Source: Candidatus Nanopusillus sp. (GTDB lineage: Archaea; Nanobdellota; Nanobdellia; Nanobdellales; Nanobdellaceae). Taken from it: DNA of 21,944 bases. Of the stretch, positions 318-21,944 are shown in pieces (within the stretch, counting starts at the first letter, position 1; every line of letters starts with the position of its first letter). The position numbers were made by a program, and so were the translations under genes. Below the pieces are notes generated by a model. It did not search any database. It was not told the origin of the DNA and saw only the letters and a list, made by a program, of their open reading frames with translations. Location of the stretch: contig JAWDMD010000006.1 of assembly GCA_046536775.1 (NCBI GenBank), positions 1 through 21,944 on the forward strand, written 5' to 3'.

Positions 318-632
318 ATGATTGAAGTTGATGATGAAAAACAAGCTTTTATCACTATTGATGGACAAAAATTATATGGTCTTCAAGACCTATTAATTTG
401 GTTATACAATACAGATCAAGATAAATTCAATTATCATAAAGATCATTTTCCAGAATGGATAAAAAATTCATTAAAAGAGGAAAGTTTATATGAAAAGATA
501 AAAGAAGCAAAAGATAAGGATGAATATATAAAAATTATAGGAAATTTCTTAAAAGCTCATGAAATATATGTAAAGAAAAAAATTTCAAAAGAAGAGGCTG
601 AAGTAAAATTTTCAAAATTATTGGGATTATGA
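318..632 (+). CDS. Small helical hypothetical protein, first gene of the glycogen-synthase operon
   Basis: 104-aa ORF with an ATG start. Its stop overlaps the next start (ATGA at 629..632). The pattern F-x-T-x-DG-x5-L-x-D-L...F-x-YH...HF-x-EWI resembles small proteins I recall next to archaeal glucan-metabolism genes (possibly the DUF5752 family); this is unverified from memory. Confidence 0.55.
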   Translation: MIEVDDEKQAFITIDGQKLYGLQDLLIWLYNTDQDKFNYHKDHFPEWIKNSLKEESLYEKIKEAKDKDEYIKIIGNFLKAHEIYVKKKISKEEAEVKFSKLLGL

Positions 633-1291
633 TAGTATCTTTTATATCATTAAAGGGAGGAGTTGGAAAAACTACATTAGCAAATAACCTCGCAGCATAT
701 TTAAAGAAAGAATATAATTATAAAGTATTGATAATAGATACAAATGGAACCTATTCTTCAAATTTAATATTTCTAAATAATGAAAAATTCTTTGGAAATA
801 AAATATATCAGGGAATAAAGGTATTACCATACTTTCATTTAAAAATTATAGATAATTTAGATTTTAGTGTTAATGATTTAAATTATTTGAAAAGATATTA
901 TGATGTAATTGTTTTTGATGTCCTTCCAAATATAAACTACATATTAAATATTGAAAAAATATCAGATATAAATTTTCTAGTAATAAATCCAGATTTTTAT
1001 TCTTTATATGTAAACAAAAAACTATATGAGCTTTTAGATAAAAATAAGGTTAAAATTGTATTAAATAAATATGATAAAAGTATTGAGATAGATTTTATAG
1101 AAGATGTATTTAACAAAGAGGTATATACAATTATTCCAATAATTAAAGATTTTAGTAATTATCAATTTCAATATCAACCAATTTCATTTTATAATGAGAA
1201 ATCAAAAGCATTGAAATATATAGATGAACTAGCATATTGTATAACTGGTAATAAAAGGAAAAGAAGCATATTTGATATTATATTTAGATGA
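629..1291 (+). CDS. ParA/MinD-family (SIMIBI) P-loop ATPase
   Basis: Deviant Walker A with signature lysine, SLKGGVGKTTLANNLA, at the N-terminus. VLIIDTNG (MinD-like switch I region) and a hydrophobic-strand-Asp Walker B, VIVFDVLP, are present. There is no CxxC motif, so it is not an Mrp/NBP35-type protein. Both ends are ATGA-overlapped with neighbours (629..632 and 1288..1291). Confidence 0.8.
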   Translation: MIVSFISLKGGVGKTTLANNLAAYLKKEYNYKVLIIDTNGTYSSNLIFLNNEKFFGNKIYQGIKVLPYFHLKIIDNLDFSVNDLNYLKRYYDVIVFDVLPNINYILNIEKISDINFLVINPDFYSLYVNKKLYELLDKNKVKIVLNKYDKSIEIDFIEDVFNKEVYTIIPIIKDFSNYQFQYQPISFYNEKSKALKYIDELAYCITGNKRKRSIFDIIFR

Positions 1292-4287: not shown

Positions 4288-4993
4288 ATAATTCTTTTAC
4301 TTCATGATTTTCAAGTGTTTTAATTTTATAACCTTTCTTTACATATGATAATATTAATCTCTCATATGCAAAATTATTTCCTAAATACTCTTTTAATACA
4401 TCTATTCCAAATTTAATTGCCTCATTTAAATCCATTTCTTTATATTTTTCTTCCAGTATTGGTGTAATCTTGTCTTCGCCCTCTCCAATTACAACAGCCT
4501 TATATCTATAGAATATTCCAGAAGGATCTAATGAGAATAACTTTGGTTCACCATCTTTATCTATTCCTCCAACTATTAATGATACAGCAAAAGGTCTTAC
4601 CCCACCAAATCTTGTATAAGATTGCATTATATCACTTATTTCTCTTACTAATAGTTCTATATCTATTTGTTTTCCGTATTGTAATTTATGCTGTTGAGCA
4701 ATTTCTCTTGCACTATCTATAAGTACTCTACCATCTGGTATAAATCCAGAGAATGTTCCAATTATGTTATCATCAATTTCCATAATTTTTTCAATAGAGT
4801 CTGTTATAATTAATTTGCTTGGAATTTTCTTATCTGCAATTATTAATATACCATCTTTTGTACATATTCCAATTGCTGTTGATCCAGCTTTTGCAGCCTG
4901 TTTTGCATATTCTACTAATATTAATTTTCCTTCTGGTGAGAATATTGCCCATCCTCTATCCATTGGTCCAAATTGTCCAACATCAGTTTCCAT
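4277..4993 (-). CDS. psmA: Proteasome subunit alpha
   Basis: The N-terminus ...MDRGWAIFSPEGKLILVEYAKQAAKAGSTAIGI matches the alpha-subunit signature (YDRxxxxFSPxGRLxQVEYA...GST). Length is 238 aa. It lies between the Pop5-like and SBDS genes. Confidence 0.92.
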   Translation of the reverse strand: METDVGQFGPMDRGWAIFSPEGKLILVEYAKQAAKAGSTAIGICTKDGILIIADKKIPSKLIITDSIEKIMEIDDNIIGTFSGFIPDGRVLIDSAREIAQQHKLQYGKQIDIELLVREISDIMQSYTRFGGVRPFAVSLIVGGIDKDGEPKLFSLDPSGIFYRYKAVVIGEGEDKITPILEEKYKEMDLNEAIKFGIDVLKEYLGNNFAYERLILSYVKKGYKIKTLENHEVKELYEE

Positions 4994-5004
4994 AAGGATA
5001 AAAT

Positions 5005-5283
5005 TTAAGATATATTTAAAAAGGATTTTGCACCTTTTAATATTTTAAATATTTTAAATTTTTTTATATTTTGTAGATATAATAAAAAAATTATCTTATA
5101 CAGATGTTTTTTGTTTATAGACAAAATAATTCTTTTATTTATTTCTATTTTATTCAAATGTAAATCATAATAATATATATATCCAAAATATTTAATAAAA
5201 TCTTTTTTTAATTTTTCTTCATCGAAAAAATCTATTAAAATATATCTATTTTTAATTTTTAGAGCCTTTGGTAATATTACCAT
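5005..5283 (-). CDS. Probable RNase P protein component 2 (Pop5/Rpp14-like), short and divergent
   Basis: The N-terminal LPKALKIKNRYILIDF resembles archaeal Pop5 LPPTLRxKxRYIxFxI. The later ILSINKKHLYKIIFLLYL and KILKGAKSF segments align loosely with the Pop5 'vrCdrxxxxxxxxAL' and 'SGTIk' regions. Its position directly upstream of psmA is the conserved Pop5 slot. Sequence support alone is weak because of the low-complexity AT-biased composition. Confidence 0.5.
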   Translation of the reverse strand: MVILPKALKIKNRYILIDFFDEEKLKKDFIKYFGYIYYYDLHLNKIEINKRIILSINKKHLYKIIFLLYLQNIKKFKIFKILKGAKSFLNIS

Positions 5284-6203
5284 TCCTCAACATTATTCAT
5301 CTTTGCTTCAATATCTTTAAGATTTAATTTTTCTAACATTTCCTTATATCTGTTTCTTATTGTAACTTCAGTTATTCCAGCAACTTCTGCTATATCTTTT
5401 TGAGTCTTTTGTATTCCATGCTTTACACATGCTAAATATATTGCAGCTGCCGCAACTCCTGCTGGACCTCTGCCTGCAGTTATATCAGATTCCTTTGCTT
5501 TACTAACGATATCTATTGCAGTAGATATTACTTCTGGTGGTAAGTTTAATAATGAAGAGAATCTATGTACATATTCTGTAACATCTATTGGTTGTATTTT
5601 TATCTTTAATGCTTGTAATAAGTGCTTATATGTTCTTCCCAATTCTTTTTTATGTATATTTGATGCTTTAACTATTTCATCTATTGTCCTTGCAACATCA
5701 TGTATTCTACATGCTATATATGTACATGCAGCAATAACTGTTTCTACAGATCTTCCCCTAATTAACCCCTTTTCGACAGCATCTAAATATAACTTCAATG
5801 CTGTTTCTTCTACTTGTTTTGGTAATTGTAAGAATGAAGAAATCCTTTTTAACTCTTGCTGTGCTAATTTTAGATTTCTTTCATAAGAACTTGTAGATCT
5901 TTGCTGCCATTTTTTTAATTTTCTAGTTAGTGTAATATCTTCATCCTTTGATTCTGCTCTTCCAATTTCTGTTGATATCATACTTGGTATATTGGTATAT
6001 CTCATTGCACTACCAGTTCTTGATAATTTTTCTGCATCTTCTGAATTTATTGTCCTATTTTCCTTTCCTAAATATTGAACTTCTTCAATTACATATCCAC
6101 ATTTTGCACATACTAGTTCTGCTGTCTTCTCATTGTATATAAATTCTGTACCTCCACATACTGGACATTTCAATTCAGGATTTTTTATAAGCTTTTGGAC
6201 CAT
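5277..6203 (-). CDS. tfb: Transcription initiation factor IIB (TFB)
   Basis: Has the N-terminal zinc ribbon CPVCGGTEFIYNEKTAELVCAKCGYVIEE, a B-finger/linker, and two cyclin-fold repeats (RGRSVETVIAACTYIACR...; GRGPAGVAAAAIYLAC...QKDIAEVAGITEVTIRNRYKE). Confidence 0.95.
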   Translation of the reverse strand: MVQKLIKNPELKCPVCGGTEFIYNEKTAELVCAKCGYVIEEVQYLGKENRTINSEDAEKLSRTGSAMRYTNIPSMISTEIGRAESKDEDITLTRKLKKWQQRSTSSYERNLKLAQQELKRISSFLQLPKQVEETALKLYLDAVEKGLIRGRSVETVIAACTYIACRIHDVARTIDEIVKASNIHKKELGRTYKHLLQALKIKIQPIDVTEYVHRFSSLLNLPPEVISTAIDIVSKAKESDITAGRGPAGVAAAAIYLACVKHGIQKTQKDIAEVAGITEVTIRNRYKEMLEKLNLKDIEAKMNNVEEW

Positions 6204-6224
6204 AATAAATTTTTAAATATTATG

Positions 6225-6232
6225 TTTATAAA
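6225..6232 (-). promoter_or_regulatory. Candidate TATA box (TTTATAAA) for tfb, spaced as expected for a leaderless transcript
   Basis: On the minus strand the sequence reads aaaaGGTTACC-TTTATAAA-(21 nt)-ATG. The box centre lies about 25-26 nt upstream of the tfb ATG (6203), the canonical archaeal TATA-to-TSS distance. Specificity is low in a genome this AT-rich. Confidence 0.3.
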
Positions 6233-6300
6233 GGTAACCTTTTAAGCATTATCAATTTTTTACTATTAATCAATGAATATCATCTCTAATAATTTTTATA

Positions 6301-7266
6301 TCATTTTGTTAGAACGTCAAATTGCCTTCTTATCCATATTATAGAAAATACTGCTAGAGAAAATATTATTACTTCTATTGGACTAAATATTATTGAGAAT
6401 ATTGGTAACAAAGCAATAGTTACAATAGATGCAATATAAAATGGGGTATTTGATAATATTAATATATCTCCAATAAATTTATTGGAATATACATATCCTC
6501 TTCTAATTGATAGATATGGAGATAATAATATTCCTACCGGTATTATTGATGAATATGTAAAGAAAAATAAGAAATTAAAGAAATAATAAACAAAACCATA
6601 TAATAATGTTGAATAGTATGATATATATTTTATTGATGAATATATTATCCACAATATTATTGTAGAAAACAAGAATATCCTTAATAATTCATCATTTCTT
6701 ACTTCTATATTTTTATTCCTTCCAAGCCTTTTATATTCTATTACTATTGGTTTCATGGAAAATATTACTGGAACAAATAACCCAAGAGTAATTATTGATA
6801 TTATAATTGTAATTATGTAACTTAGATTATACCTCCTTATATATGCAAAATTTAGTTCAGTTTTCTTTGAACTCTTTATTTTTAGTTGTTTTATATAATT
6901 ATAAAAGAACAATATCACAAAAATAGATATAATAACATATACGAACAAGTTATATCTAAATATGAAGAATAATATTACTTCCAAAATGATTAATAAATAA
7001 TAAAAGAATGAATATGATTCTCTTTTATAAAATAATATTTTTAATTCTGCAATAACATTATCTAAATAAATATATAAACCATAAAATGATGAAACTAAAT
7101 TAAATATAAATAAAAATATAAAGTATGAAATTATTGTATAAATTATTGAGAAAAATAAATTAGCTAGTCCAATAAATAAATTATCCCAATGATTAAAGGA
7201 TAAGAAAAATCCTATAATTATTAAATAATATACTATTCTTCTATCTATTTTTATATATTCAAACAT
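6301..7266 (-). CDS. Hypothetical polytopic membrane protein
   Basis: 321-aa ORF with an ATG start and about 8-9 hydrophobic segments rich in Phe/Ile/Tyr. No recognisable catalytic motif. Its FLFFFT segment is weakly similar to the membrane proteins at 16538..17608 and 19543..20754, but this may only reflect composition. Confidence 0.55.
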
Positions 7267-9190: not shown

Positions 9191-12100
9191 ATGAGAAAAA
9201 TATATTTATTATCTTTTCTTTTATTTTCTTTATATTCAGTTTTTTCTCAAGGATATAATATATGGCATTCAGAATCTTTATATAAACCAGTAACATTTTT
9301 GGGTATAAATTTATTGGATAATAATCTATCTGTAGGTCAAACATTATATTATAATGTTTATATAAATTATAGAGATATTTATTATATACCTAATACATCA
9401 TTAGTAATACAAATAATACAAAAAAATGATAATAATAATATTTATCCATTCCAATTTACATCTGATAATGAAGTATATGAATATGTAATAAAAAATATAT
9501 ATTTACAACCGGGAGAATATTTAAACATACCATTAAATTATACAATTCCATATAATTTACCTTCTGGATATTATTATATTGTTGCATATTTATATACACC
9601 TCTAAGTGAAATAAATGGTTTGCCATTTATATATTATCCAGGATCATATCAAGAATTTTATATAAATAACCCAAATAATGTTCCAGAAATTTATATTATA
9701 AAAAATGATACATATTTAAGTTCCCCTGATTTATATACATGGGGTAGTTTATTATCATCATCAGGATATTATTATTCTTCATTAAGTGGACCTTCCGGTT
9801 ATGGTGTTTCAAACTATATTAATTTAACAGTTGGTGTATATTCGAGTATAAATACAAATGCTACATTGAATATTCTAATATCTCCATGGGATGATATTTT
9901 ATATAATCCAGTATATAATTATACTGAAAATGTACAATTAAATGAAGGATATAATACAATAAATATTCCATATATAAATGTTGCAACATTGAATCCAAAT
10001 GCATATTCATTAATAATAAACCTATTATATAATAATCAAACAGAATCAATATATAGATTAAGATTTATTGTTTTAGGTCCAACAACAAGATTAGATGGTG
10101 TTTATTTACAAGGTAATGGAAATTTAACATTTATAGTAGCACCATCTCCAGATCACTATACATATCCAGTTACCCAAAATGTAGTAGCAGAAGTTTATTC
10201 AAACACATTAGGATTTAAAGAAAATATATACTTAGGAAATATAAGTTGGAATAGTACACAATTTACTTATGTAAATCTACAATTACCATTAAATTCTACT
10301 AGCTTTGATTTATGTATAAACTTATATTCAAATAACAATTTAGATTATGGATATTGTACATATTATATTTTAAATCAATCAAATCAATATGGAATTCCAA
10401 TAAGTAATCTACTTTATGTAAATTATACAAACAATTACTTCTATATATGTTCAAATATTTCTGGAATATTAAATATAGGATATAATTCTGAATCAAACAT
10501 AATATATACTACAAATATAAATAATAATTGTTTAAATTATACATTGGGTAATGGGGTTTATTATATTTCCTTCTATTCATCCCAATATTCAAATCTATGG
10601 ATAATAAATAATACAGTAATACAAAACAATATAAGTAAAAATCAAACACAGCCAATAAATAATGTGCAAAATAATTATAATTATCCAAACTATTATTTGG
10701 TAATATTAATAATATTTATTGCAATAATATTATTTATGATACTAAAAAAGAAAAGATTATTTATCTTTGCATTAGTTTTATTACCTATATTATTTAATGT
10801 ACATTCTCAAGAACTATATCTAAGCTCAAATCAAATATGTACACCTTCAGATTCATTAAATATAACAACACAGGGATTTAACGGATCGGTAACAGTTTCT
10901 TATGAATTTTATAATTCATCGAATCCCTCAAATGTCTATGCAAGTAATACATATCAATACAATGGAAATATATACTATACATATAATTATACAGTATACT
11001 TCAATAATTTGCCATTAAATTTGTCAAATAATATAAATTCTACAATAATAGATTATAATATAACTGTTCAGAATTGTACAGGAGGTATTAAAAATTTCCA
11101 ATTGTCATCTTGTGATCAATATAATTATAATGGATCAATATATTTAAATTATCCATATTATTTTGAATATTATACAAATCCAATATATCAAGGATCAGAC
11201 GATGCAGGACAAATAATTCTAGGTTGTCCATCTTCAAATAATTTGTTAAATAATACATACTTTAATTTTACATTAATTTTACCAAATGGAACAAGTGTAG
11301 TTACTAGAACAAATTGTTCAGGATCTGGAGATCCAGATTGGGGTCAGAATCTATGTGATTTATATGTAAGTAATTATGATAACAATATTGGAAATTATAC
11401 ATATTATGGAGAATATTATTATAATAATATTTTATTTAATCAATCATTTATTAACAATCCATTACAGGTATTAGTAGCTAGTTCTGGAGAATTTACTACA
11501 GAATCATGTAAGCATGCAAGAACAATAACAAATACTAATTCAAATCCTTTATCTATAAGTTTCGCATATTATGGACCATATTCAGGATCATATTATACAT
11601 ACTATAATGGAATATATGTTATAGCACAAAATACTTCTGTAGGATTTAATGTAGGTTATGGATATAACTGGTTGTGTAGTGATGGCGTTACGCGTACTGT
11701 TACACCATCAGTTGCTGCTTGGTTATATAGTTCAAATCAATATTATAACCAAAATTCATTCCAGTATATACAAGGTATATCAAATCTACCATTTAACTTT
11801 ACACAATATAATATAGATAGAAATACTGTTTATAATACATATTCAAATGAAGGATTATTATTAATTCCACCAGAACATTTACCTTCAGGAAGTTCTTACT
11901 TTACTTTATATAATTTTAGTAATAATGCGGGTTATTATGCAATATATCAAGATTATGTAAAAACAGTATGTGATAATCCGACAGATTATATATGTGATGC
12001 AGATGGAAATTTATGTAATATTGGTCATATAGTAGGAGAGGCAGAAGGATGGTTACCAATATCCTCAGAACCAGGATATTATTTATTAGTAATAAATCCA

Positions 12101-13456
12101 AATGCTACTGTATATTTGCAAAATTTAACTTACTATCCATACAATTATAGTACAAACCCTGGTGATGCAATTTATATTGGTAATATAACAAATGTTGGAA
12201 TTGGAAATCTTACAGTAATTACAAATTGGGATCTCCCAAACAATTCAACTAGTTTCTTATTACAGCAACAGCAATATTCCCCATTATATATTTATTTCCC
12301 AACAAATCTATGTCCACATCAAAATTGTACAATAAATTATAGTGTAGCATATCAAAATGCATATGGATTAACAGTATATAATCCTGTAACATATTATGGA
12401 TATGTAAATATTAGCTGGGATACATTAAATATATATACTAATCCATCATTAACACAAATAACATATGGACAACCTTCAAATATAACCTTAGCGGTACAAA
12501 ATACAGGACCAGTACCTGCTGAAAATATATCTGTACAAAATGTATATTATGATCCAAATTGTATACAGGTATTAAATACTGGTAGTCAAATAGGTTCATT
12601 AAATACAAATCAAGTAGGTGACTTAAATGTAGAAATTAATATAACAAATCTATATTGTTCTCCACAAGATTATTATATAACATTTACAATTTATGGATGG
12701 AATACTTATATATATAATTATTCAATAATATTGCCAATAAGTTATATAATTTCTCCACCAAATGGAGCACAATTGCAATCAATAACAACATTTAATATAA
12801 CAGATGACAATGCACAAACATGTTATATAATATTTAATGGAGCACAATTCTCTAGAAATTGTAATTCAGATTTTGCATATCAACAATATATGTGTGCAGG
12901 ATCATTATGTAATACACAAATTCAATCAATAGATAATTATGCAGAGTTCTATGAAAATTATACATATTATAACTATTTAACAAATCAGTCATCAATAATG
13001 GGAATAGCCGTTGCAACAAATGTAATAAGTTTATATGTTGGACAAGAATATAAATATACAGTCTTAATAAAGAATTTAGTACCAACAAATATTCAATGTT
13101 CTCTAATACCAATTCCATCAACCACAAATGATAATGCTATTGTTACTAGTTATAGTATAAATGGAATAAATAGTAATGAATCTACTATAAGTCCTTATGG
13201 ATCTGCAGAATTAGATATAAATATTTTAGGAGCTTCTAGCGGTGTAAGTAAATTACTTTATGGTATAATATGTAAGTCTACATATGGTTCTTCATCATTT
13301 AGTACTCAAATTCCAGTATATGTATTTGGACCAAATAATATAATAGCAAACTATACGCAATCTCAAATAATAGTATCTGAGGAAGTATCTCCAACAAATT
13401 TAATTGGAATTGGAGGTTTAATATTGGGATTATTTGCTTTGCTTAATATAATCTAA
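9191..13456 (+). CDS. Giant secreted/anchored surface protein (S-layer-like or adhesin-like), possibly two fused precursors (aa 1-~521 and Met516-1421)
   Basis: 1421-codon ORF. It has an N-terminal Sec-type signal peptide MRKIYLLSFLLFSLYSVFS|QG, and the body is extremely rich in Asn/Tyr/Ser/Thr with dozens of N-x-S/T sequons. An internal TM anchor-KKKR-second signal peptide lies at 10691..10807, and a C-terminal TM anchor NLIGIGGLILGLFALLNII follows. The second half carries many Cys. No enzyme motifs found. Confidence 0.8.
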   Translation: MRKIYLLSFLLFSLYSVFSQGYNIWHSESLYKPVTFLGINLLDNNLSVGQTLYYNVYINYRDIYYIPNTSLVIQIIQKNDNNNIYPFQFTSDNEVYEYVIKNIYLQPGEYLNIPLNYTIPYNLPSGYYYIVAYLYTPLSEINGLPFIYYPGSYQEFYINNPNNVPEIYIIKNDTYLSSPDLYTWGSLLSSSGYYYSSLSGPSGYGVSNYINLTVGVYSSINTNATLNILISPWDDILYNPVYNYTENVQLNEGYNTINIPYINVATLNPNAYSLIINLLYNNQTESIYRLRFIVLGPTTRLDGVYLQGNGNLTFIVAPSPDHYTYPVTQNVVAEVYSNTLGFKENIYLGNISWNSTQFTYVNLQLPLNSTSFDLCINLYSNNNLDYGYCTYYILNQSNQYGIPISNLLYVNYTNNYFYICSNISGILNIGYNSESNIIYTTNINNNCLNYTLGNGVYYISFYSSQYSNLWIINNTVIQNNISKNQTQPINNVQNNYNYPNYYLVILIIFIAIILFMILKKKRLFIFALVLLPILFNVHSQELYLSSNQICTPSDSLNITTQGFNGSVTVSYEFYNSSNPSNVYASNTYQYNGNIYYTYNYTVYFNNLPLNLSNNINSTIIDYNITVQNCTGGIKNFQLSSCDQYNYNGSIYLNYPYYFEYYTNPIYQGSDDAGQIILGCPSSNNLLNNTYFNFTLILPNGTSVVTRTNCSGSGDPDWGQNLCDLYVSNYDNNIGNYTYYGEYYYNNILFNQSFINNPLQVLVASSGEFTTESCKHARTITNTNSNPLSISFAYYGPYSGSYYTYYNGIYVIAQNTSVGFNVGYGYNWLCSDGVTRTVTPSVAAWLYSSNQYYNQNSFQYIQGISNLPFNFTQYNIDRNTVYNTYSNEGLLLIPPEHLPSGSSYFTLYNFSNNAGYYAIYQDYVKTVCDNPTDYICDADGNLCNIGHIVGEAEGWLPISSEPGYYLLVINPNATVYLQNLTYYPYNYSTNPGDAIYIGNITNVGIGNLTVITNWDLPNNSTSFLLQQQQYSPLYIYFPTNLCPHQNCTINYSVAYQNAYGLTVYNPVTYYGYVNISWDTLNIYTNPSLTQITYGQPSNITLAVQNTGPVPAENISVQNVYYDPNCIQVLNTGSQIGSLNTNQVGDLNVEINITNLYCSPQDYYITFTIYGWNTYIYNYSIILPISYIISPPNGAQLQSITTFNITDDNAQTCYIIFNGAQFSRNCNSDFAYQQYMCAGSLCNTQIQSIDNYAEFYENYTYYNYLTNQSSIMGIAVATNVISLYVGQEYKYTVLIKNLVPTNIQCSLIPIPSTTNDNAIVTSYSINGINSNESTISPYGSAELDINILGASSGVSKLLYGIICKSTYGSSSFSTQIPVYVFGPNNIIANYTQSQIIVSEEVSPTNLIGIGGLILGLFALLNII

Positions 13457-16537: not shown

Positions 16538-17608
16538 TTAAATATGCTTTTTATATATGGAATGTATATAAATTATTACTAATCCTATAATTGCTAATAT
16601 TAGTAAGTTTATTGAAAATAAAATTATGAATAAAGGAAAATTAATTAAAGTTCCTTGATAAGTATAGTAGAAATAATTTACTAAATTCATTAATATAAAT
16701 GGTATTCCTGAAACAATTCCCAAAATTATTTTTTTACTGTCTGGAAACCTATGATATAAATACGCGTGAATTGCGGTAAAGAAAAATAAAAACATAATTA
16801 TAATATTTTGAATAATGTAAATTATATTGATTTTTGTTAAGAAAAATAGAATTGTAAAGAAAATAAATAGAAATATTATTAATATTAAAATATACATTGT
16901 GAATCCCTCCGGCTTATTATCAAATATTCTTTTAATCATTAGCATTAAAATAAATTCTAATATTGAGAATAAGGATATAGTAAATAATATTAAAATATTT
17001 TGAACAATTAAAGAAAGTATTAACTGTACAGATAAAAAAAGAAAAATTATGGAGAAGATAATTTGTTTATATTTGTTTAAAAGATTTAATAAACTTAAAT
17101 GATATATTTTTTTATCATCCAAATTGAATAAAAATCCTAGAAGGGATATAAAAAATAGAGAATAAATATTTATAATATTATATAATGTTATAAATAAAAC
17201 ATATATTAGAGAAATTATTAATATTATTATTTGTTTTCTATTTATAGATAATTTATTCTCTGCGACAAAATTTCCAAAGAAATAAAATAAAATAAATGAA
17301 AAAAATACATAAACAAAATATTTAAGTAAAATATTATTAAAAATATTTAATATAGGCAATAAAAAAATTAATAAATATAAAATTTTTATCATATTGAATT
17401 TCGTGTTTTTCAAGAAATAATATAAAACAAAGGAGTAAAATATTCCAAATAAAATATAATATAAATTTGTAAAAAATATTATAGATATTGGGAATATTAT
17501 TAAATATAATATAAATATATGTTTATTGATATTTTTGTTTTCGTCAATTAATCTATCTATGATAGTTTCACCCATTATATATAGAGATTCATTAAAACTT
17601 TTATGCAA
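16538..17608 (-). CDS. Hypothetical polytopic membrane protein, paralog B of the surface operon
   Basis: About 10 hydrophobic segments and no Cys. The C-proximal block FFFTAIHAYLYHRFPDSKKIILGIVSGIPFILMN aligns with the gene at 19543..20754. The track start (17608) is TTG, overlapping the upstream stop by 8 nt. An alternative ATG lies at 17575..17573. Confidence 0.6.
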   Translation of the reverse strand: MHKSFNESLYIMGETIIDRLIDENKNINKHIFILYLIIFPISIIFFTNLYYILFGIFYSFVLYYFLKNTKFNMIKILYLLIFLLPILNIFNNILLKYFVYVFFSFILFYFFGNFVAENKLSINRKQIIILIISLIYVLFITLYNIINIYSLFFISLLGFLFNLDDKKIYHLSLLNLLNKYKQIIFSIIFLFLSVQLILSLIVQNILILFTISLFSILEFILMLMIKRIFDNKPEGFTMYILILIIFLFIFFTILFFLTKINIIYIIQNIIIMFLFFFTAIHAYLYHRFPDSKKIILGIVSGIPFILMNLVNYFYYTYQGTLINFPLFIILFSINLLILAIIGLVIIYIHSIYKKHI

Positions 17609-18248
17609 TTCTAAAATATGTTTGATTAATTCTCTCTAAATATACTGTTACAAATTGATAAAATGTAATATTATTTATCGAATAACATGGTATATAATTA
17701 CATATAATATTTCCATTTGTATTTTCTGTACATGTTATATTTCCAGATATATTTGTTGGGAATAGAAATACAAAAGTTTGATTAGAACTATTTTCATTAC
17801 TTAGACAGAAACTATATAAAAAATAATAGAAATCTGAATAATAATTTTTACATATAGTTAGTTTAATATAATCTAAAGAATAAGCTATGGAAATTGGATA
17901 TGTATATGTATTACAATTTCCATTAAAATTTATGATTCCAAAACTATAATTATCTATTTCTGCTCTAAATGTATAAGGAAATATTGTACAATTTGGAAGT
18001 TCATTATAATATGTTTGATTAAATTGTTCTATATTATTTACTGTTGTAAAATATATTGGATAGTTTGGATATCCTATACAATTTGGAGAAAATAGATCAT
18101 ATATTATTTCTTGTTCATATGAAAAAGAAGTTTGTTCTTTATAATTTGTTAAATTTATATTAGAAAATATAGCTAACAAAAGTATCATTCCAACCAAAAA
18201 TAATACTGTTAATATTGTTATAAATATAATAGATAGTTGTTCTTTCAT
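17601..18248 (-). CDS. Cys-rich, sequon-rich extracellular protein with an N-terminal signal/anchor
   Basis: MKEQLSIIFITILTVLFLVGMILLLAIFS is followed by an Asn/Tyr-rich ectodomain with 8 Cys and many N-x-S/T sites (NLT, NQT, NCT, NYS, NIS, NIT...). ATG start. Confidence 0.65.
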   Translation of the reverse strand: MKEQLSIIFITILTVLFLVGMILLLAIFSNINLTNYKEQTSFSYEQEIIYDLFSPNCIGYPNYPIYFTTVNNIEQFNQTYYNELPNCTIFPYTFRAEIDNYSFGIINFNGNCNTYTYPISIAYSLDYIKLTICKNYYSDFYYFLYSFCLSNENSSNQTFVFLFPTNISGNITCTENTNGNIICNYIPCYSINNITFYQFVTVYLERINQTYFRIA

Positions 18249-18310
18249 TTTATATGAATATATCTAATAAAAATATTCTTTCCATATCTTCTCTTTCATT
18301 ATCAAATTGA

Positions 18311-19546
18311 TTAGATATACTGTTGTATGCATTCATCTGGGAATGATATTGTTTCTGGGCATGTTGGATTTGGGCATTGTCCAGGTAAACAGGCAGGGCA
18401 TTGCTGTCCACCAATTATACAACTATAGCATTCAACCTGGGTTGAAGTATAATATGGAAATGTAAATATTTCTTCTGAACCTTGTTGATTTATATTCACA
18501 TTACCGCAACCATTCTGAGAAGAACACGAATATTGCTGATTTTCTAATGTACAACTTTTAGATATTACTTGATTGTTTGTTGTATTATATGTTTCAGTAC
18601 AACTATATATGCAATTTAAATAATAATAATATGTTATATTTTCATAAAAAACTATAGAAGTAATTGCTATTGTTTGAGGATAAGTGTTTCCATTATAATA
18701 TACATTATATTGATTATCAGAACATTTTAATATTACTCTACATGCAATTTCTTGTGGATATAAACATATCTGACATGATTGAATATTTGTACATTGATAT
18801 GGAATTATCGTTTCATTACATTGAATGTTTGGATCATTTGAAAATTGCTCGAAATCTTGTGCACAATTATTAGTTGTAACTTTATTATATATTTCATTAT
18901 AGCAATCCTGATAAGAACATCCCGAAAAAGCTCCATCTTGAGAGAATTGAAATGCTAAATTATATAAATAAAATGCAGGATTATTTGTTATATTTGATGT
19001 ACTTGCATAAGGAATTATCGAACCAGAAGAAGGACCTGTAATATTTATATATATACCTTGAACATAAACAGGAAAATTATAATTGTATTCTCCAGAAGTT
19101 ATATTATTACAATCTCCGATAATTCCTGCTTGATAGCTATTTGAAAAATTAAAAGATATATTATATGGATAATAATATTGATACGCAGATAAATATTGTT
19201 CTCCATAGCTTATTAAGCTTCCAATTCCAGAAGTTAGCAAATTATTATAGTATTGAATTGCATTCTCGCATGATTGTGGTAATATACATCTATAGGGGAA
19301 AGAAGCCCAATTTTCATTTCCCCATCCATTTGTTCCAGCTACATATGATTCTGAATAACCCTCTTGTGTTAATACTGTTTGTAAATATCCTAAAAAATAA
19401 TTTGATAATGTAGATAAAGAGGTAAATCTGTTAAAAACAATGTTTTGATTATAATTGTATGTTAATGCATAAAAAGATAAAAGGATTATTAATATAGCAA
19501 CTGTTAAAAATAAAACCACATAGACACTTTCTATTTGATTTCTCAT
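18311..19546 (-). CDS. Cys-rich, sequon-rich extracellular protein with an N-terminal signal/anchor and a C-terminal Cys-Pro knot
   Basis: MRNQIESVYVVLFLTVAILIILLSFYA is followed by about 380 aa rich in Asn/Tyr/Ser/Gln, with about 24 Cys by my count. It ends in ECYSCIIGGQQCPACLPGQCPNPTCPETISFPDEC. Its ATG overlaps the upstream stop (ATGA, 19543..19546). Confidence 0.7.
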   Translation of the reverse strand: MRNQIESVYVVLFLTVAILIILLSFYALTYNYNQNIVFNRFTSLSTLSNYFLGYLQTVLTQEGYSESYVAGTNGWGNENWASFPYRCILPQSCENAIQYYNNLLTSGIGSLISYGEQYLSAYQYYYPYNISFNFSNSYQAGIIGDCNNITSGEYNYNFPVYVQGIYINITGPSSGSIIPYASTSNITNNPAFYLYNLAFQFSQDGAFSGCSYQDCYNEIYNKVTTNNCAQDFEQFSNDPNIQCNETIIPYQCTNIQSCQICLYPQEIACRVILKCSDNQYNVYYNGNTYPQTIAITSIVFYENITYYYYLNCIYSCTETYNTTNNQVISKSCTLENQQYSCSSQNGCGNVNINQQGSEEIFTFPYYTSTQVECYSCIIGGQQCPACLPGQCPNPTCPETISFPDECIQQYI

Positions 19547-20754
19547 ATTTTTAATTTAACATGTAGGTATATAAATGTTAATATAAGGATTGGTGTTACT
19601 AATCCATGTATAATACCGAGTGCCATTAATATATTTGGTACAGATATTAGATGTATACTGCTTGGGCCTCCAAATAATACTGATTCAAGGAATTCTCCAG
19701 TTATATTTTGTAACAAAACTAAAATACCAATAGACATACCCAATGCTTTTGTAATTGCTTTTTTACTATTCCTATATAATTTATAATGTATACCTACAAA
19801 GAAAAATAATAAGGCAATTAGGTATCTAGTATGTAATGCTGTAGGAGTAAAATCTGTATATAACAAATATAATTCTCCAAAAAATATTATTAAGACCATC
19901 GTTATAAGTAAAAAATAGTTTGTTGGTACATTATATTTTAAATTTCTATAAACTAAAAAGTAAATGATAAGTTCATATATAGATAAAAATATTAAGGATT
20001 CATATTCATATAAATAATATTCTCCGCTTAAGCTATTTATAACTAAATTTTTATATATTAATAATTGATTTAATGAAAGAAAGATTTGAATTATAATAAT
20101 AAAAAATATTAATAAAAATATGTATTTTTTATATTTATAGATTTCAAAGATTCTTTTAAATATTTTTGTTCTTGATAATAATATTTCATTTCCATTAAAA
20201 TACATAACTAAGAATAAGAAAATTGTAAGTATAATAAATAATAAGGTATAAATTATCTCAAAAGCATAAAGATGTAAACCCACATAATTAAGGAACATCG
20301 ATAGTATATAGTTTATTTTTACATCAAGATCTGTAGTTACAGAATTATAAATAAGTTCAAGGAAAAATTGTATTATGAATAATATTATTGAGATTATATA
20401 AAATATTAATGATTTCTTTGAAATATATAAATTGTTTTCAAATAAATAATATCCCATAGAAAATGCTATAAAATAAAATATCCAATAATTTACTATATAA
20501 GTAAATATTGATGGAAATGGGAAAGGTAGAGGTAAATTAGTATAAATTCCAAAAATTCCAATTGGTATATATAATGGAAATATTAATTTATATATTAAAG
20601 ATGTATTTTTTGAATTTTTTAATATAAAAGATAATAAGAATAAATATATTGCACCATAAATAATTATATTAATATTAAAGTTGCTAATATAAATAAAAAG
20701 TAAAAACAATATTAAATATGTAATAAATAAAATTTTATCTTCTTTTTTTACCAT
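19543..20754 (-). CDS. Hypothetical polytopic membrane protein, paralog A of the surface operon
   Basis: 403 aa with about 11-12 hydrophobic segments and no Cys. The C-proximal block FFFVGIHYKLYRNSKKAITKALGMSIGILVLLQN is shared with the gene at 16538..17608. Its ATG overlaps the upstream stop in the string ATGGTAA (20748..20754). Confidence 0.65.
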   Translation of the reverse strand: MVKKEDKILFITYLILFLLFIYISNFNINIIIYGAIYLFLLSFILKNSKNTSLIYKLIFPLYIPIGIFGIYTNLPLPFPFPSIFTYIVNYWIFYFIAFSMGYYLFENNLYISKKSLIFYIISIILFIIQFFLELIYNSVTTDLDVKINYILSMFLNYVGLHLYAFEIIYTLLFIILTIFLFLVMYFNGNEILLSRTKIFKRIFEIYKYKKYIFLLIFFIIIIQIFLSLNQLLIYKNLVINSLSGEYYLYEYESLIFLSIYELIIYFLVYRNLKYNVPTNYFLLITMVLIIFFGELYLLYTDFTPTALHTRYLIALLFFFVGIHYKLYRNSKKAITKALGMSIGILVLLQNITGEFLESVLFGGPSSIHLISVPNILMALGIIHGLVTPILILTFIYLHVKLKI

Positions 20755-21944
20755 ACTGTTAATTCAGAAACAAGATATCCGCCTAGGAATGGTGTATCTA
20801 CTGGTAAATATATATAATAAACATATGTATTTGTATTTGGTGGTATTGAATATCCCAAACTTATACTATTTTGGCTACCTTGATATATATATGCATTTAG
20901 TTCTTCAGTATTTCCTGTATTTGTAATACAATATGCTCTTGCCATTGCAACACCATTTCCTCCAGGATGAGGATCATAATATACAGCAGAAATTATAAAT
21001 TGATTCGTGTTTGGATCTCTATCGTCTATTACCCATTTAGTAATATTAAATCTATAAAATCCTTCACTGTTTATATTAATATTTCCTAAGTAAACCAAAG
21101 GACATTCTTTTCCAACAATAACTCCAGTTACATTTTGTGTATCATTAAATACACCAGTTGGACAATCTATTATCCCTCCGCTTAGATTGTATTCACATAA
21201 AGGATCTGCTGCTAAAAATACATAATCTGGTTCTCCACTTTCATTTAAAAATGAAATATATAATCTTATTACCTCATGCCATGGATAATCTATAAATACT
21301 TGCTGACAATTTGGTAATATATTTACTATACCTCTATAAAATGATCCAACAATTAATTCTTGATTGCCCTGACTACTTTCGCAATCAGAATTGCCTATAT
21401 AATATGTACCAAATTCTTCTTGGCATATATCATTTAAATATTGTTGTGGAATTATAAATTCTGCTAGTCTATTTATATCAGTAGCTGTTTTATAAGTAGG
21501 GGGACCTTGATAATAATATGGTATAGATGTTAGATTGGGATTATCAGTCACGGGACATGAGCCCTCCTTATAATGGCATAAATATCCAGAAAAGAAATTA
21601 GGCAAACTAGAGGTAGGCTGAGCTATTACGCTAGGTCCTTCATAATTTGGAAATAAATTCCATTCACCCTGAGGACAATATACAGAGGCTTCTGTAAAAT
21701 TATAATTTGGAAATATTTCTGTTAATGGCATACAGTATCCATTTTGTACAGCTTGAGATTGAGAAAGGGCATTATATAATGTTGGTAATCCCCACAAACC
21801 TATTGATCGAGATTGATGAAAAGGTGCTGTTGCATTTACCCATCCTGCTCCATATAAAGTTCGAGTTACTGGCATACTAATATTTTCTTTATAATTATTC
21901 ACAAAGAAATATGTATAATTCCATTCATACCATTGTGTACCATC
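20748..21944 (-). CDS. Cys-rich extracellular protein, C-terminal portion; gene continues past the right window edge
   Basis: The track start at 21902 is a GTG. The frame stays open upstream to the edge (…DGTQWYEWNYTYFF-V-NNYKEN…), so the true start lies outside the window. The visible part has 11 Cys and many sequons (NAT, NFT, NLT, NES, NLS, NDT, NVT, NIT) and is poor in Lys. No enzyme motif found. Confidence 0.7.
   Translation of the reverse strand, partial: DGTQWYEWNYTYFFVNNYKENISMPVTRTLYGAGWVNATAPFHQSRSIGLWGLPTLYNALSQSQAVQNGYCMPLTEIFPNYNFTEASVYCPQGEWNLFPNYEGPSVIAQPTSSLPNFFSGYLCHYKEGSCPVTDNPNLTSIPYYYQGPPTYKTATDINRLAEFIIPQQYLNDICQEEFGTYYIGNSDCESSQGNQELIVGSFYRGIVNILPNCQQVFIDYPWHEVIRLYISFLNESGEPDYVFLAADPLCEYNLSGGIIDCPTGVFNDTQNVTGVIVGKECPLVYLGNININSEGFYRFNITKWVIDDRDPNTNQFIISAVYYDPHPGGNGVAMARAYCITNTGNTEELNAYIYQGSQNSISLGYSIPPNTNTYVYYIYLPVDTPFLGGYLVSELTVW

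Follow-up and report, generated by a model that had tools for sequence, protein, structure and literature searches.

Which kind of surface system is encoded by five head-to-tail minus-strand genes (16538..21944) that match no known protein family and lie at the end of a stretch of nanoarchaeal DNA? The stretch, referred to below as the window, comprises 21,944 nucleotides of Candidatus Nanopusillus sp. (contig JAWDMD010000006.1 of assembly GCA_046536775.1). An earlier note made from its sequence had taken the five genes for a self-contained system, in which a cysteine-rich exported cargo and a membrane protein dedicated to it occur twice. The observation behind that note was largely correct but incomplete, and its interpretation is partly supported. 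The five genes (g09 to g13) are not self-contained: they share an array with a TadC/FlaJ platform protein and with a protein carrying a class III signal peptide, and they very probably belong to a TadC-headed operon of the type IV filament kind.

The TadC-headed array

Homolog-bearing contigs were numbered L001, L004 and so on (L006 being N. acidilobi, L012 YN1 and L016 Nanobdella aerobiophila MJ1), and the array gene numbers g01 to g13 were taken from L001. The five genes are numbers 9 to 13 of a collinear, tightly packed, same-strand array of 12–13 genes, the order of which is kept in L001, L004, L006, L008, L009, L011, L012, L014, L016 and L017. This order was found in 11 lineages, namely seven of Nanopusillus type (including the complete N. 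acidilobi genome), YN1, N. aerobiophila MJ1, L014 and L017, and it persists where the identity of g10 falls to 27–30%; in L014 and L017 g10 is about 30–37% identical to the L001 protein. In all 11 lineages the array is flanked by a RimK/DUF371 pair on one side and an arginase/UDG pair on the other. The order of the five genes, a check of which in related genomes the earlier note had proposed, is kept there, apart from losses of g13, as part of this longer array: the block is the last third of a larger conserved unit cut off by the window, and the array is specific to the Nanopusillaceae/Nanobdellaceae nanoarchaea of hot springs.

The platform protein is g02, a polytopic protein of 656 aa encoded in L001 5.6 kb upstream of g10, beyond the window. 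No Pfam model was matched by g02 itself, but its tie to the T2SSF family is solid: full-length homologs found at E=2e-60 and 5e-51 bear PF00482 (T2SSF), 5 of the 13 members of the g02 family match T2SSF (best 5e-9), and the family profile searched against the PDB met the cytoplasmic domain of EpsF/GspF (2vma, E=0.028). The N. acidilobi g02 (Nps_00520) is placed in arCOG01814, as is the annotated T2SS (type II secretion) protein F of the same organism. A distant g02 homolog (P0083, on the DPANN contig L013) directly follows a T2SSE ATPase and is itself followed by 11 single-pass proteins, several of them with textbook class III sites (KKG/MSG..., SKG/LET...) and several rich in cysteine.

At the head of the array, g01 (253 aa in L001) carries a canonical class III signal peptide. 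Its N-terminus reads M-K-[KR]-R-[G/A/S]-[IV]-D-[MI]-A-V-[QE]-L-[IV]-F, followed by a hydrophobic helix, and the residue at position -1 to the predicted cleavage point is only G, A or S across 10 lineages; PHROG matches of g01 were sub-threshold only (E=0.014 and 0.095). Because g02 belongs to the TadC/FlaJ platform family and g01 has a class III site, we read the locus as one encoding a type IV filament (TFF), a machine like the type IV pilus (T4P).

Between g02 and these five genes, the L001 array encodes four small single-pass, pilin-like proteins (g03 to g06; 94, 159, 137 and 146 aa), a protease and a cysteine-rich protein. The protease, g07 (L001:6018-7547, 509 aa), matches PF00112 (papain family) at E=3.7e-18 and 66.8 bits, where the curated cutoff is 20.7, and its catalytic Cys (GDCWAF), His (GHA) and Asn (NEWG) motifs, read by eye, are apparently intact. 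Its papain-family (C1) domain is mounted on an M-K-[RK]-x-Q plus hydrophobic N-terminus, the same kind of anchor as that of the pilin-like proteins. The next protein, g08 (L001:7528-8352, 274 aa), has a Sec-type signal, a C-terminal anchor and 14 cysteines in every lineage, with a faint DUF333 match (E=0.0095) and no PHROG match. The remaining L001 genes are g09 (552 aa, the full-length form of the gene that the window truncates), the polytopic membrane protein g10 (403 aa), the cysteine-rich ectoproteins g11 (412 aa) and g12 (215 aa) and g13 (345 aa), a polytopic paralog of g10.

Two side observations concern these contigs. The YN1 g07 (L012:13201-14940) is fused to the preceding small pilin-like g06, giving a protein of 579 aa. 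On L013, just upstream of the T2SSE ATPase, three tandem paralogs (4821-6527, minus strand; about 5 transmembrane helices, 174–198 aa, no Pfam match) are possible accessory or peptidase-like components.

The five genes at the end of the window

The open reading frames of the five genes are all present, head to tail on the minus strand, and two of the three overlaps first described at their junctions stand: the stop of g09 overlaps the start of g10 in ATGGTAA (20748..20754), a 7-nt overlap kept in L001, L004, L007-L009, L011, L012, L014 and L016, and the stop of g10 overlaps the start of g11 in ATGA (19543..19546). A gap of 62 nt between g11 and g12 (18249..18310) was likewise read directly from the sequence. 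The third overlap, of 8 nt at 17601..17608, needs a TTG start for g13 that its orthologs do not use. Because these orthologs, including a 46%-identical Nanobdella protein, begin at an ATG matching window position 17575 (MGETIID / MPNETFID), g13 most likely occupies 16538..17575 and follows g12 after 25 nt; the last gene does encode a polytopic membrane protein, as described, but one most likely of 345 aa and not of the 356 aa that would be reached from the TTG at 17608. All five are genuine genes, since ratios of nonsynonymous to synonymous substitution rates (dN/dS) of 0.12–0.41 against their orthologs indicate purifying selection on each of them. The statement that none belongs to a known family was borne out, searches of Pfam, NCBIfam, PHROGs and PDB sequences having given no match for any of the five.

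Three of the genes encode cysteine-rich ectoproteins. The window holds the C-terminal 398 aa of g09 (20748..21944), which runs off its end; in orthologs the complete protein is 484–552 aa long with an N-terminal anchor, so that about 150 N-terminal residues lie beyond the window, and the alignment shows invariant Cys and Trp. The 411-aa g11 (18311..19546) contains 24 cysteines, of which 14 are invariant in 11 lineages and six more nearly so, and the 215-aa g12 (17601..18248) contains eight, all invariant in 13 sequences. Each of the latter two has one N-terminal hydrophobic segment, and the three proteins bear 8, 10 and 10 sequons; the cysteine counts, sequons and anchors of the earlier note are thus confirmed. 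Values of dN/dS were 0.32–0.37 for g09, 0.20–0.24 for g11 and 0.12–0.15 for g12, the last being the most conserved protein of the cluster after TadC (g02). The ectoproteins are conserved, rich in cysteine and sequons, and predicted to be anchored with the N-terminus inside. A role at the cell surface or in host contact, as proposed in the earlier note, is plausible.

The N-termini of g09, g11 and g12 follow a common plan, M-[KR]-x-Q and then a hydrophobic helix. In g09 the Gln is near-invariant (Asp in 1 of 10 orthologs); g11 begins M-R-N-Q-x-E, with M1, Q4 and E6 invariant in 11 lineages; and g12 begins M-K-x-Q-x-S, with M1, Q4 and S6 invariant in the 13 sequences. The Gln is also near-invariant in g07, and a similar, less constant motif occurs in g03 and g05. 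Pairwise BLASTP among the cysteine-rich proteins found no similarity, and PDB profile searches with g09, g11 and g12 gave nothing, nor did an individual scan of every g11 ortholog give more than noise. Comparison of profiles of the cysteine-rich and small families revealed a weak similarity, confined to the N-terminal regions and in register from residue 1, with hhalign scores of 74% for g09 and g11 over about 90 residues (the N-terminal 93 of g09) and 86% for g04 and g05; the C-terminal anchor of g08 did not align with these N-terminal modules. The profiles lend modest support to the idea that the N-terminal regions may represent one common module.

In the best AlphaFold2 (AF2) model of g12 (predicted local distance difference test, pLDDT, 81.6), helices at residues 2–40 and 44–52 precede an alpha/beta head, and the model as predicted has the overall build of a type IV pilin. 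We consider g09, g11 and g12 most likely to be pilin-like surface subunits, and propose that g11 is a pilin-like subunit or adhesin and g12 a minor pilin-like subunit. Since the residue before the Gln is not confined to small ones and the matches to pilin families are sub-threshold, we call these proteins pilin-like and no more. Among the orthologs, that of g11 in L004 (11209-12528) is extended at its C-terminus, where it finishes in a poly-Gly run (439 aa versus 411), and on a draft contig of Nanobsidianus stetteri Nst1_C7 (L007, 11206-11796) g11 is only 196 aa long, g12 and g13 are missing there and an arginase-family gene is found further on, which suggests a misassembly or a rearrangement.

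No version of the cluster lacks the polytopic protein g10 (19543..20754, 403 aa, about 12 transmembrane helices). Its close homologs number 73, the named ones all from Candidatus Nanopusillus, Nanobsidianus or an unclassified Nanoarchaeota metagenome-assembled genome, and no record identical to the g10 sequence of the window was found. An HMMER search of 1.84 billion representative proteins returned only seven clusters, and the five that were traced (P0056, P0090, P0091, P0093 and P0095) all came from the syntenic position in the array; judged by its sequence, g10 is an orphan family. Neither g10 nor its individual orthologs gave a Pfam or PDB profile match beyond noise, and the AF2 model (predicted template modelling score 0.82, pLDDT 77, about 12 helices), though confident by the standards of membrane proteins, found no matching fold among PDB structures with Foldseek, the top entries being rhodopsins and G-protein-coupled receptors at E>=0.9 and TM about 0.2.

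Twenty g10 sequences, down to 27% identity, share invariant H308-T309-R310, H323, K336, E354, E357, H383 and H398; D142 and D301 are nearly invariant, and these sequences contain no invariant Asp and no GxGD. The invariant residues fall in a C-terminal module (residues 302–401; 19552..19851, minus strand), in which a G-E-x-x-E helix separates two H-x14-H helices, the last four helices of the protein resembling a duplicated hairpin. The two helices thus bear a His pair each (H308/H323 and H383/H398), with no match in sequence or fold to the cytochrome families. From the distribution of Lys and Arg, H308, R310, E354, E357, H383, D142 and D301 are predicted to face outside and H323, H398 and K336 the cytoplasm.

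That the two polytopic proteins are paralogous, as the earlier note held, is borne out by BLASTP (E=3e-5) and by hhalign (99.1%, E=1.7e-18, 283 columns). Composition does not explain the match, because an unrelated AT-rich 321-aa orphan with nine transmembrane helices (6301..7266, minus strand, beside LonB; itself without a family match) scored 0.2% against g10 in hhalign; on sequence comparison, the paralogy of g10 and g13 is genuine and extends over nearly all of both proteins. The paralog g13 keeps the equivalents of H323 and H398, the inner His pair, and lacks those of H308/T309/R310, E354/E357 and H383. It is present in the window and in L001, L006, L012 and L016 and absent from L004, L008, L009, L011, L014 and L017, that is, from 6 of the 11 lineages. 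These natural losses, together with the retention of the inner His pair only, mark g13 as a dispensable, degenerate copy, and for this reason the module seen twice in the window, cargo plus membrane protein, is no conserved design.

Several known families were considered for g10 and g13 and set aside. An A24 prepilin peptidase (PibD/FlaK/EppA) is contradicted by the residues just described and by the lack of a Pfam match; archaeosortase/exosortase, DsbB and VKOR are contradicted by the absence of any cysteine from either protein, which also agrees with the note's failure to see an archaeosortase Cys; a CPBP/Rce1-type protease would account for the FxxxH of g10 but not for the order and spacing of its motifs; and a second, divergent TadC would need a cytoplasmic domain, which g10 lacks. 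Homology to Wzy, O-antigen ligase, GT-C glycosyltransferase or flippase families, of which Wzy and flippases had been named in the earlier note as counting against the surface-system idea, was found neither by profile searches with g10 and g13 nor among solved folds in the Foldseek search with g10.

The start of g10 differs in one genome. In N. acidilobi 7A (CP010514), L006:9996-10016, which corresponds to window 20734..20754, reads ATGGTAAAAAAGAAG, with a run of 6 A in place of the 7 A seen in the window and in six other genomes. The shorter run shifts the g10 frame right after the start codon and leaves an ATG open reading frame of 317 aa; this could be a homopolymer sequencing error, an inactivation in culture or phase variation.

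The G+C content of the window is about 23%, that of the block is the same, and archaeal housekeeping genes of the window include those for TFIIB, proteasome alpha, SBDS, LonB, S24e, a UDG-family glycosylase, an arginase-family enzyme and glycogen synthase. A 1421-aa protein with no Pfam match is encoded 3 kb from the cluster (9191..13456, plus strand), and a ParA/MinD-type P-loop ATPase (AAA_31/CbiA) 15 kb from it (629..1291, plus strand); ATPases of the FleN/MinD family have been reported as regulators of archaeal T4P systems.

Weighing the explanations

On balance, the five genes are probably genes 9 to 13 of a type IV filament operon of 12–13 genes and form an accessory part of that filament system. 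In such a system, g09, g11 and g12 would insert with the N-terminus inside, become glycosylated and disulfide-bonded outside, and be pulled from the membrane by the TadC platform, with energy from a secretion ATPase encoded elsewhere, to reach a short pilus, a pseudopilus or its tip as adhesin-type or structural minor subunits; we hold with moderate confidence that a TadC-headed machine assembles them. The g07 protease may be displayed in the same way. The protein g10 would be an accessory subunit peculiar to the cluster, integral to the membrane and coupled in translation to g09 and g11, that binds metal at the outer face of the membrane or acts there on the pilin-like proteins or on their glycans; a role at that face is favoured over leader-peptide cleavage because the conserved His, Arg, Glu and Asp residues are predicted to lie outside. 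The paralog g13 would be a degenerate duplicate that can be lost.

Several findings weigh against this account. The residue before the Gln of g09, g11 and g12 may be N, S, A, E, G, L, V or Y, and because it is not the G, A or S of a class III site the three proteins could be uncleaved and signal-anchored; with 411 aa and 484–552 aa, g11 and g09 are moreover large for pilins. The five AF2 models of g12 spread widely in confidence (46.7–81.6, the other four 46.7–69.3), and Foldseek with the g12 model found no solved pilin in the PDB and no BFVD match, the best E being 0.1–0.2 (0.22 for the PDB). Searches by sequence met pilin families below threshold only (UpsA E=0.18, GspG E=0.097, Flp1_like E=0.073), and only its position and its conservation suggest the role given to g10. 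The N. acidilobi proteome measured by liquid chromatography–tandem mass spectrometry (LC-MS/MS), in which only about one third of all proteins were detected, contains no protein of the cluster (Nps_00465-00525). The absence of an ATPase, already remarked from the window, holds for the locus, none of 10 lineages having shown a secretion ATPase within 10 kb of it, but not for the cell: N. acidilobi encodes a secretion ATPase beside a second TadC elsewhere (Nps_02245/02250), the ATPase was detected in its proteome, and supply in trans is for this reason possible. Archaeal cases in which ATPase/TadC pairs lie apart from pilin loci are on record (PMC4858521). The same survey lists two nanoarchaea without any A24 prepilin peptidase, and no such peptidase is found in the N. 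acidilobi annotation table, though the table of its host has one. Nanoarchaea of this group nevertheless possess archaellins and make archaella, so that an unrecognised peptidase must exist.

It is unlikely, if not to be neglected, that g09, g11 and g12 are ordinary type II signal-anchored surface glycoproteins (for example adhesins, or components of the envelope or of the attachment cone) that are co-regulated with the filament genes and stay outside the filament, the M-[KR]-x-Q motif then serving for topology or sorting and not as a pilin signal. The residue before the Gln, not restricted to G, A or S, would suit such anchors, as would the size of g09 and g11, the want of a match to any pilin family or fold and the lack of a known prepilin peptidase in these genomes; yet the same N-terminal design recurs in at least seven proteins of a TadC-headed array beside a canonical class III protein, the g12 model has a long helix and a head resembling those of a pilin, and archaeal T4P loci and bindosomes are known to include large proteins that carry class III signals. 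The idea that the block is a self-contained export or insertion system, in which g10 and g13 are the dedicated exporter or insertase of the adjoining cysteine-rich cargo, takes its appeal from the alternating order in the window, the overlapping g09-g10-g11 junctions and the paralogy of g10 and g13. We judge it improbable: 6 of 11 lineages do without g13, although its supposed cargo g12 is the best-conserved ectoprotein, surface display without g13 being already implied by these natural losses; g13 lacks most of the residues invariant in g10; the genes sit within a larger array containing TadC; and neither an energy-coupling component nor a resemblance to a transporter or insertase fold was seen, nor any other evidence in support of an export or insertion function of the membrane proteins.

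Little probability attaches, too, to g10 (with g13) being the missing non-A24 class III signal peptidase, which would cut the short M-[KR]-x leader before the Gln. The substrates of EppA, the A24 peptidase of Methanococcus, begin with Gln after cleavage. Nanoarchaea have archaellins and the class III site of g01 and no recognisable A24 peptidase, g10 is the sole conserved polytopic protein of the cluster of unassigned role and has invariant His and Glu, and the gene of the 9-transmembrane EppA is frequently found together with its pilin loci (PMC4858521). Against this, Foldseek showed no resemblance to FlaK or other solved intramembrane proteases, and most of the invariant polar residues lie outside by the positive-inside rule whereas leader cleavage is cytoplasmic; given this sidedness, the lack in g10 of an invariant Asp or GxGD, and hence of the two Asp of the cytoplasmic face, argues against a leader peptidase of A24 type in particular. 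Fainter still is the prospect that g10 uses its four invariant His to hold two haems or metal ions and carries electrons or metal across the membrane, for example for oxidative folding outside. In di-haem bundles of the cytochrome b type, each helix bears a His pair with one His near each membrane face. In g10, the H-x14-H motifs of two helices one helix apart likewise place one His of each pair near each face, the four C-terminal helices look like a duplicated hairpin, and the neighbouring proteins need many disulfides; but g10 has no Cys for thiol exchange and no cytochrome b match in sequence or fold, g13 retains the inner His pair only, and N. acidilobi is reported (PMC4935971) to be without respiratory-chain components. 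An integrated virus or mobile element with cysteine-rich glycoproteins and membrane proteins would explain the orphan, cysteine-rich, glycoprotein-like content, which is common in archaeal viruses, but has next to no probability, for the block occupies one fixed chromosomal position, from RimK/DUF371 to arginase/UDG, in all 11 lineages, has the GC content of its surroundings, shows no PHROG match for the five genes or g08 and no BFVD fold match, and is accompanied by no integrase or capsid gene.

Host attachment and comparison with known systems

The nanoarchaea of this clade live on other archaea, to which they are attached. In cryo-tomograms of N. aerobiophila, YN1 and YN4 (PMC11104419, PMC11420986) an attachment organelle is seen that comprises a cone, a portal and a thin tube or filament; the last is pushed through the host S-layer into the host and has reported widths of 7 +/- 1 nm, 6.6 nm and 8.2 nm, and the authors describe the proteins of the organelle as unknown. 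Of these organisms, N. aerobiophila (L016) and YN1 (L012), whose genomes the analysis covered, both have the cluster, as does Nanopusillus, and these genomes hold other filament systems besides it. It is a reasonable if rather doubtful proposal that the cluster builds the tube or filament, and perhaps the gate, of the organelle, in which case the cysteine-rich proteins might form or tip the filament, g07 might open the host S-layer, and g10 might be a new membrane component of a type IV filament machine, with a part in processing, in gating or in a metal-dependent reaction at the outer face of the membrane. With its platform, its pilin-like proteins (about 10), its surface protease and its orphan membrane protein, the cluster is a concrete candidate gene set for host contact. 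It also sharpens a second question, namely that archaellins and at least one canonical class III signal peptide occur where there is no recognisable prepilin peptidase. If it should prove to be only another adhesive pilus, five genes annotated as uncharacterized in N. acidilobi (Nps_00465-00485) would still have been assigned to a known kind of machine.

A link between T4P and host interaction has been drawn for Yellowstone Nanoarchaeota, in which four FlaJ/TadC homologs were reported (Jarett et al., PMC6142677). Term searches of the consulted papers on N. acidilobi, N. aerobiophila and YN1 met no mention of the cluster, the protease fusion or g10/g13, and the type IV pilus-related genes named in the YN4 preprint (YN4_047, YN4_417, YN4_710) could not be mapped to the cluster. 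The logic of the array is that of the DPANN 'dark matter' islands, in which an ATPase, TadC and surface proteins lie beside unannotated signal-peptide proteins that are taken for diverse pilins evolving fast (Makarova, Wolf & Koonin 2019, PMC6393860); in the passages of that paper reached by term search, a description of this array, of the g10/g13 family or of the protease fusion was not found.

The Epd cluster of Methanococcus (TFF system 1) resembles the array in having about 11 genes in one transcript unit, with many pilins, accessory membrane proteins and a polytopic membrane protein (EppA/EpdA, with nine transmembrane helices) encoded among the pilin genes. The DUF361 motif, QxSxExxxL, is only partly echoed by QxS in g12 and QxE in g11. 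The two differ in that EppA is an A24 aspartyl peptidase whereas g10 has neither an invariant Asp nor GxGD, and in that the system 1 locus has two platform genes and an ATPase. Bacterial pilin genes also have polytopic neighbours: TfpO/PilO, PglL and TfpW are pilin-modifying enzymes of about 12 transmembrane helices encoded beside them, with conserved His and Arg outside, and g10 is similar in these respects but differs from them in showing no Wzy_C/GT-C signature in Pfam or NCBIfam and no fold match.

Archaeal T4P loci, including those of the Thermoproteales subclade 4E type, were surveyed by Makarova, Koonin & Albers 2016 (PMC4858521). Those of Thermoproteales contain cysteine-rich components, a C-terminally anchored, cysteine-rich S-layer-like protein and extra membrane proteins, and TFF subsystem 4A of some Nanoarchaeota has accessory genes after the platform gene (Sivabalasarma & Albers 2026 preprint, 10.64898/2026.04.22.720090). 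The array departs from both in that most of its N-termini have a leader of 2–4 residues and Gln in place of [KR]-[G/A], in its papain-family protease on a pilin-like anchor, in the 12-transmembrane g10/g13 family, which has no detectable relative outside the clade, and in having no ATPase in the locus, no known A24 peptidase and no match to an arCOG pilin family. Notwithstanding these differences, the array and the 4E-type and 4A loci alike have a TadC/FlaJ gene followed by many single-pass proteins with pilin-type N-termini, multiple conserved cysteines in nearly all secreted components, and extra uncharacterised membrane proteins, with the ATPase sometimes encoded elsewhere, and in g08 the array has a protein resembling the C-terminally anchored, cysteine-rich S-layer-like component of the Thermoproteales loci.

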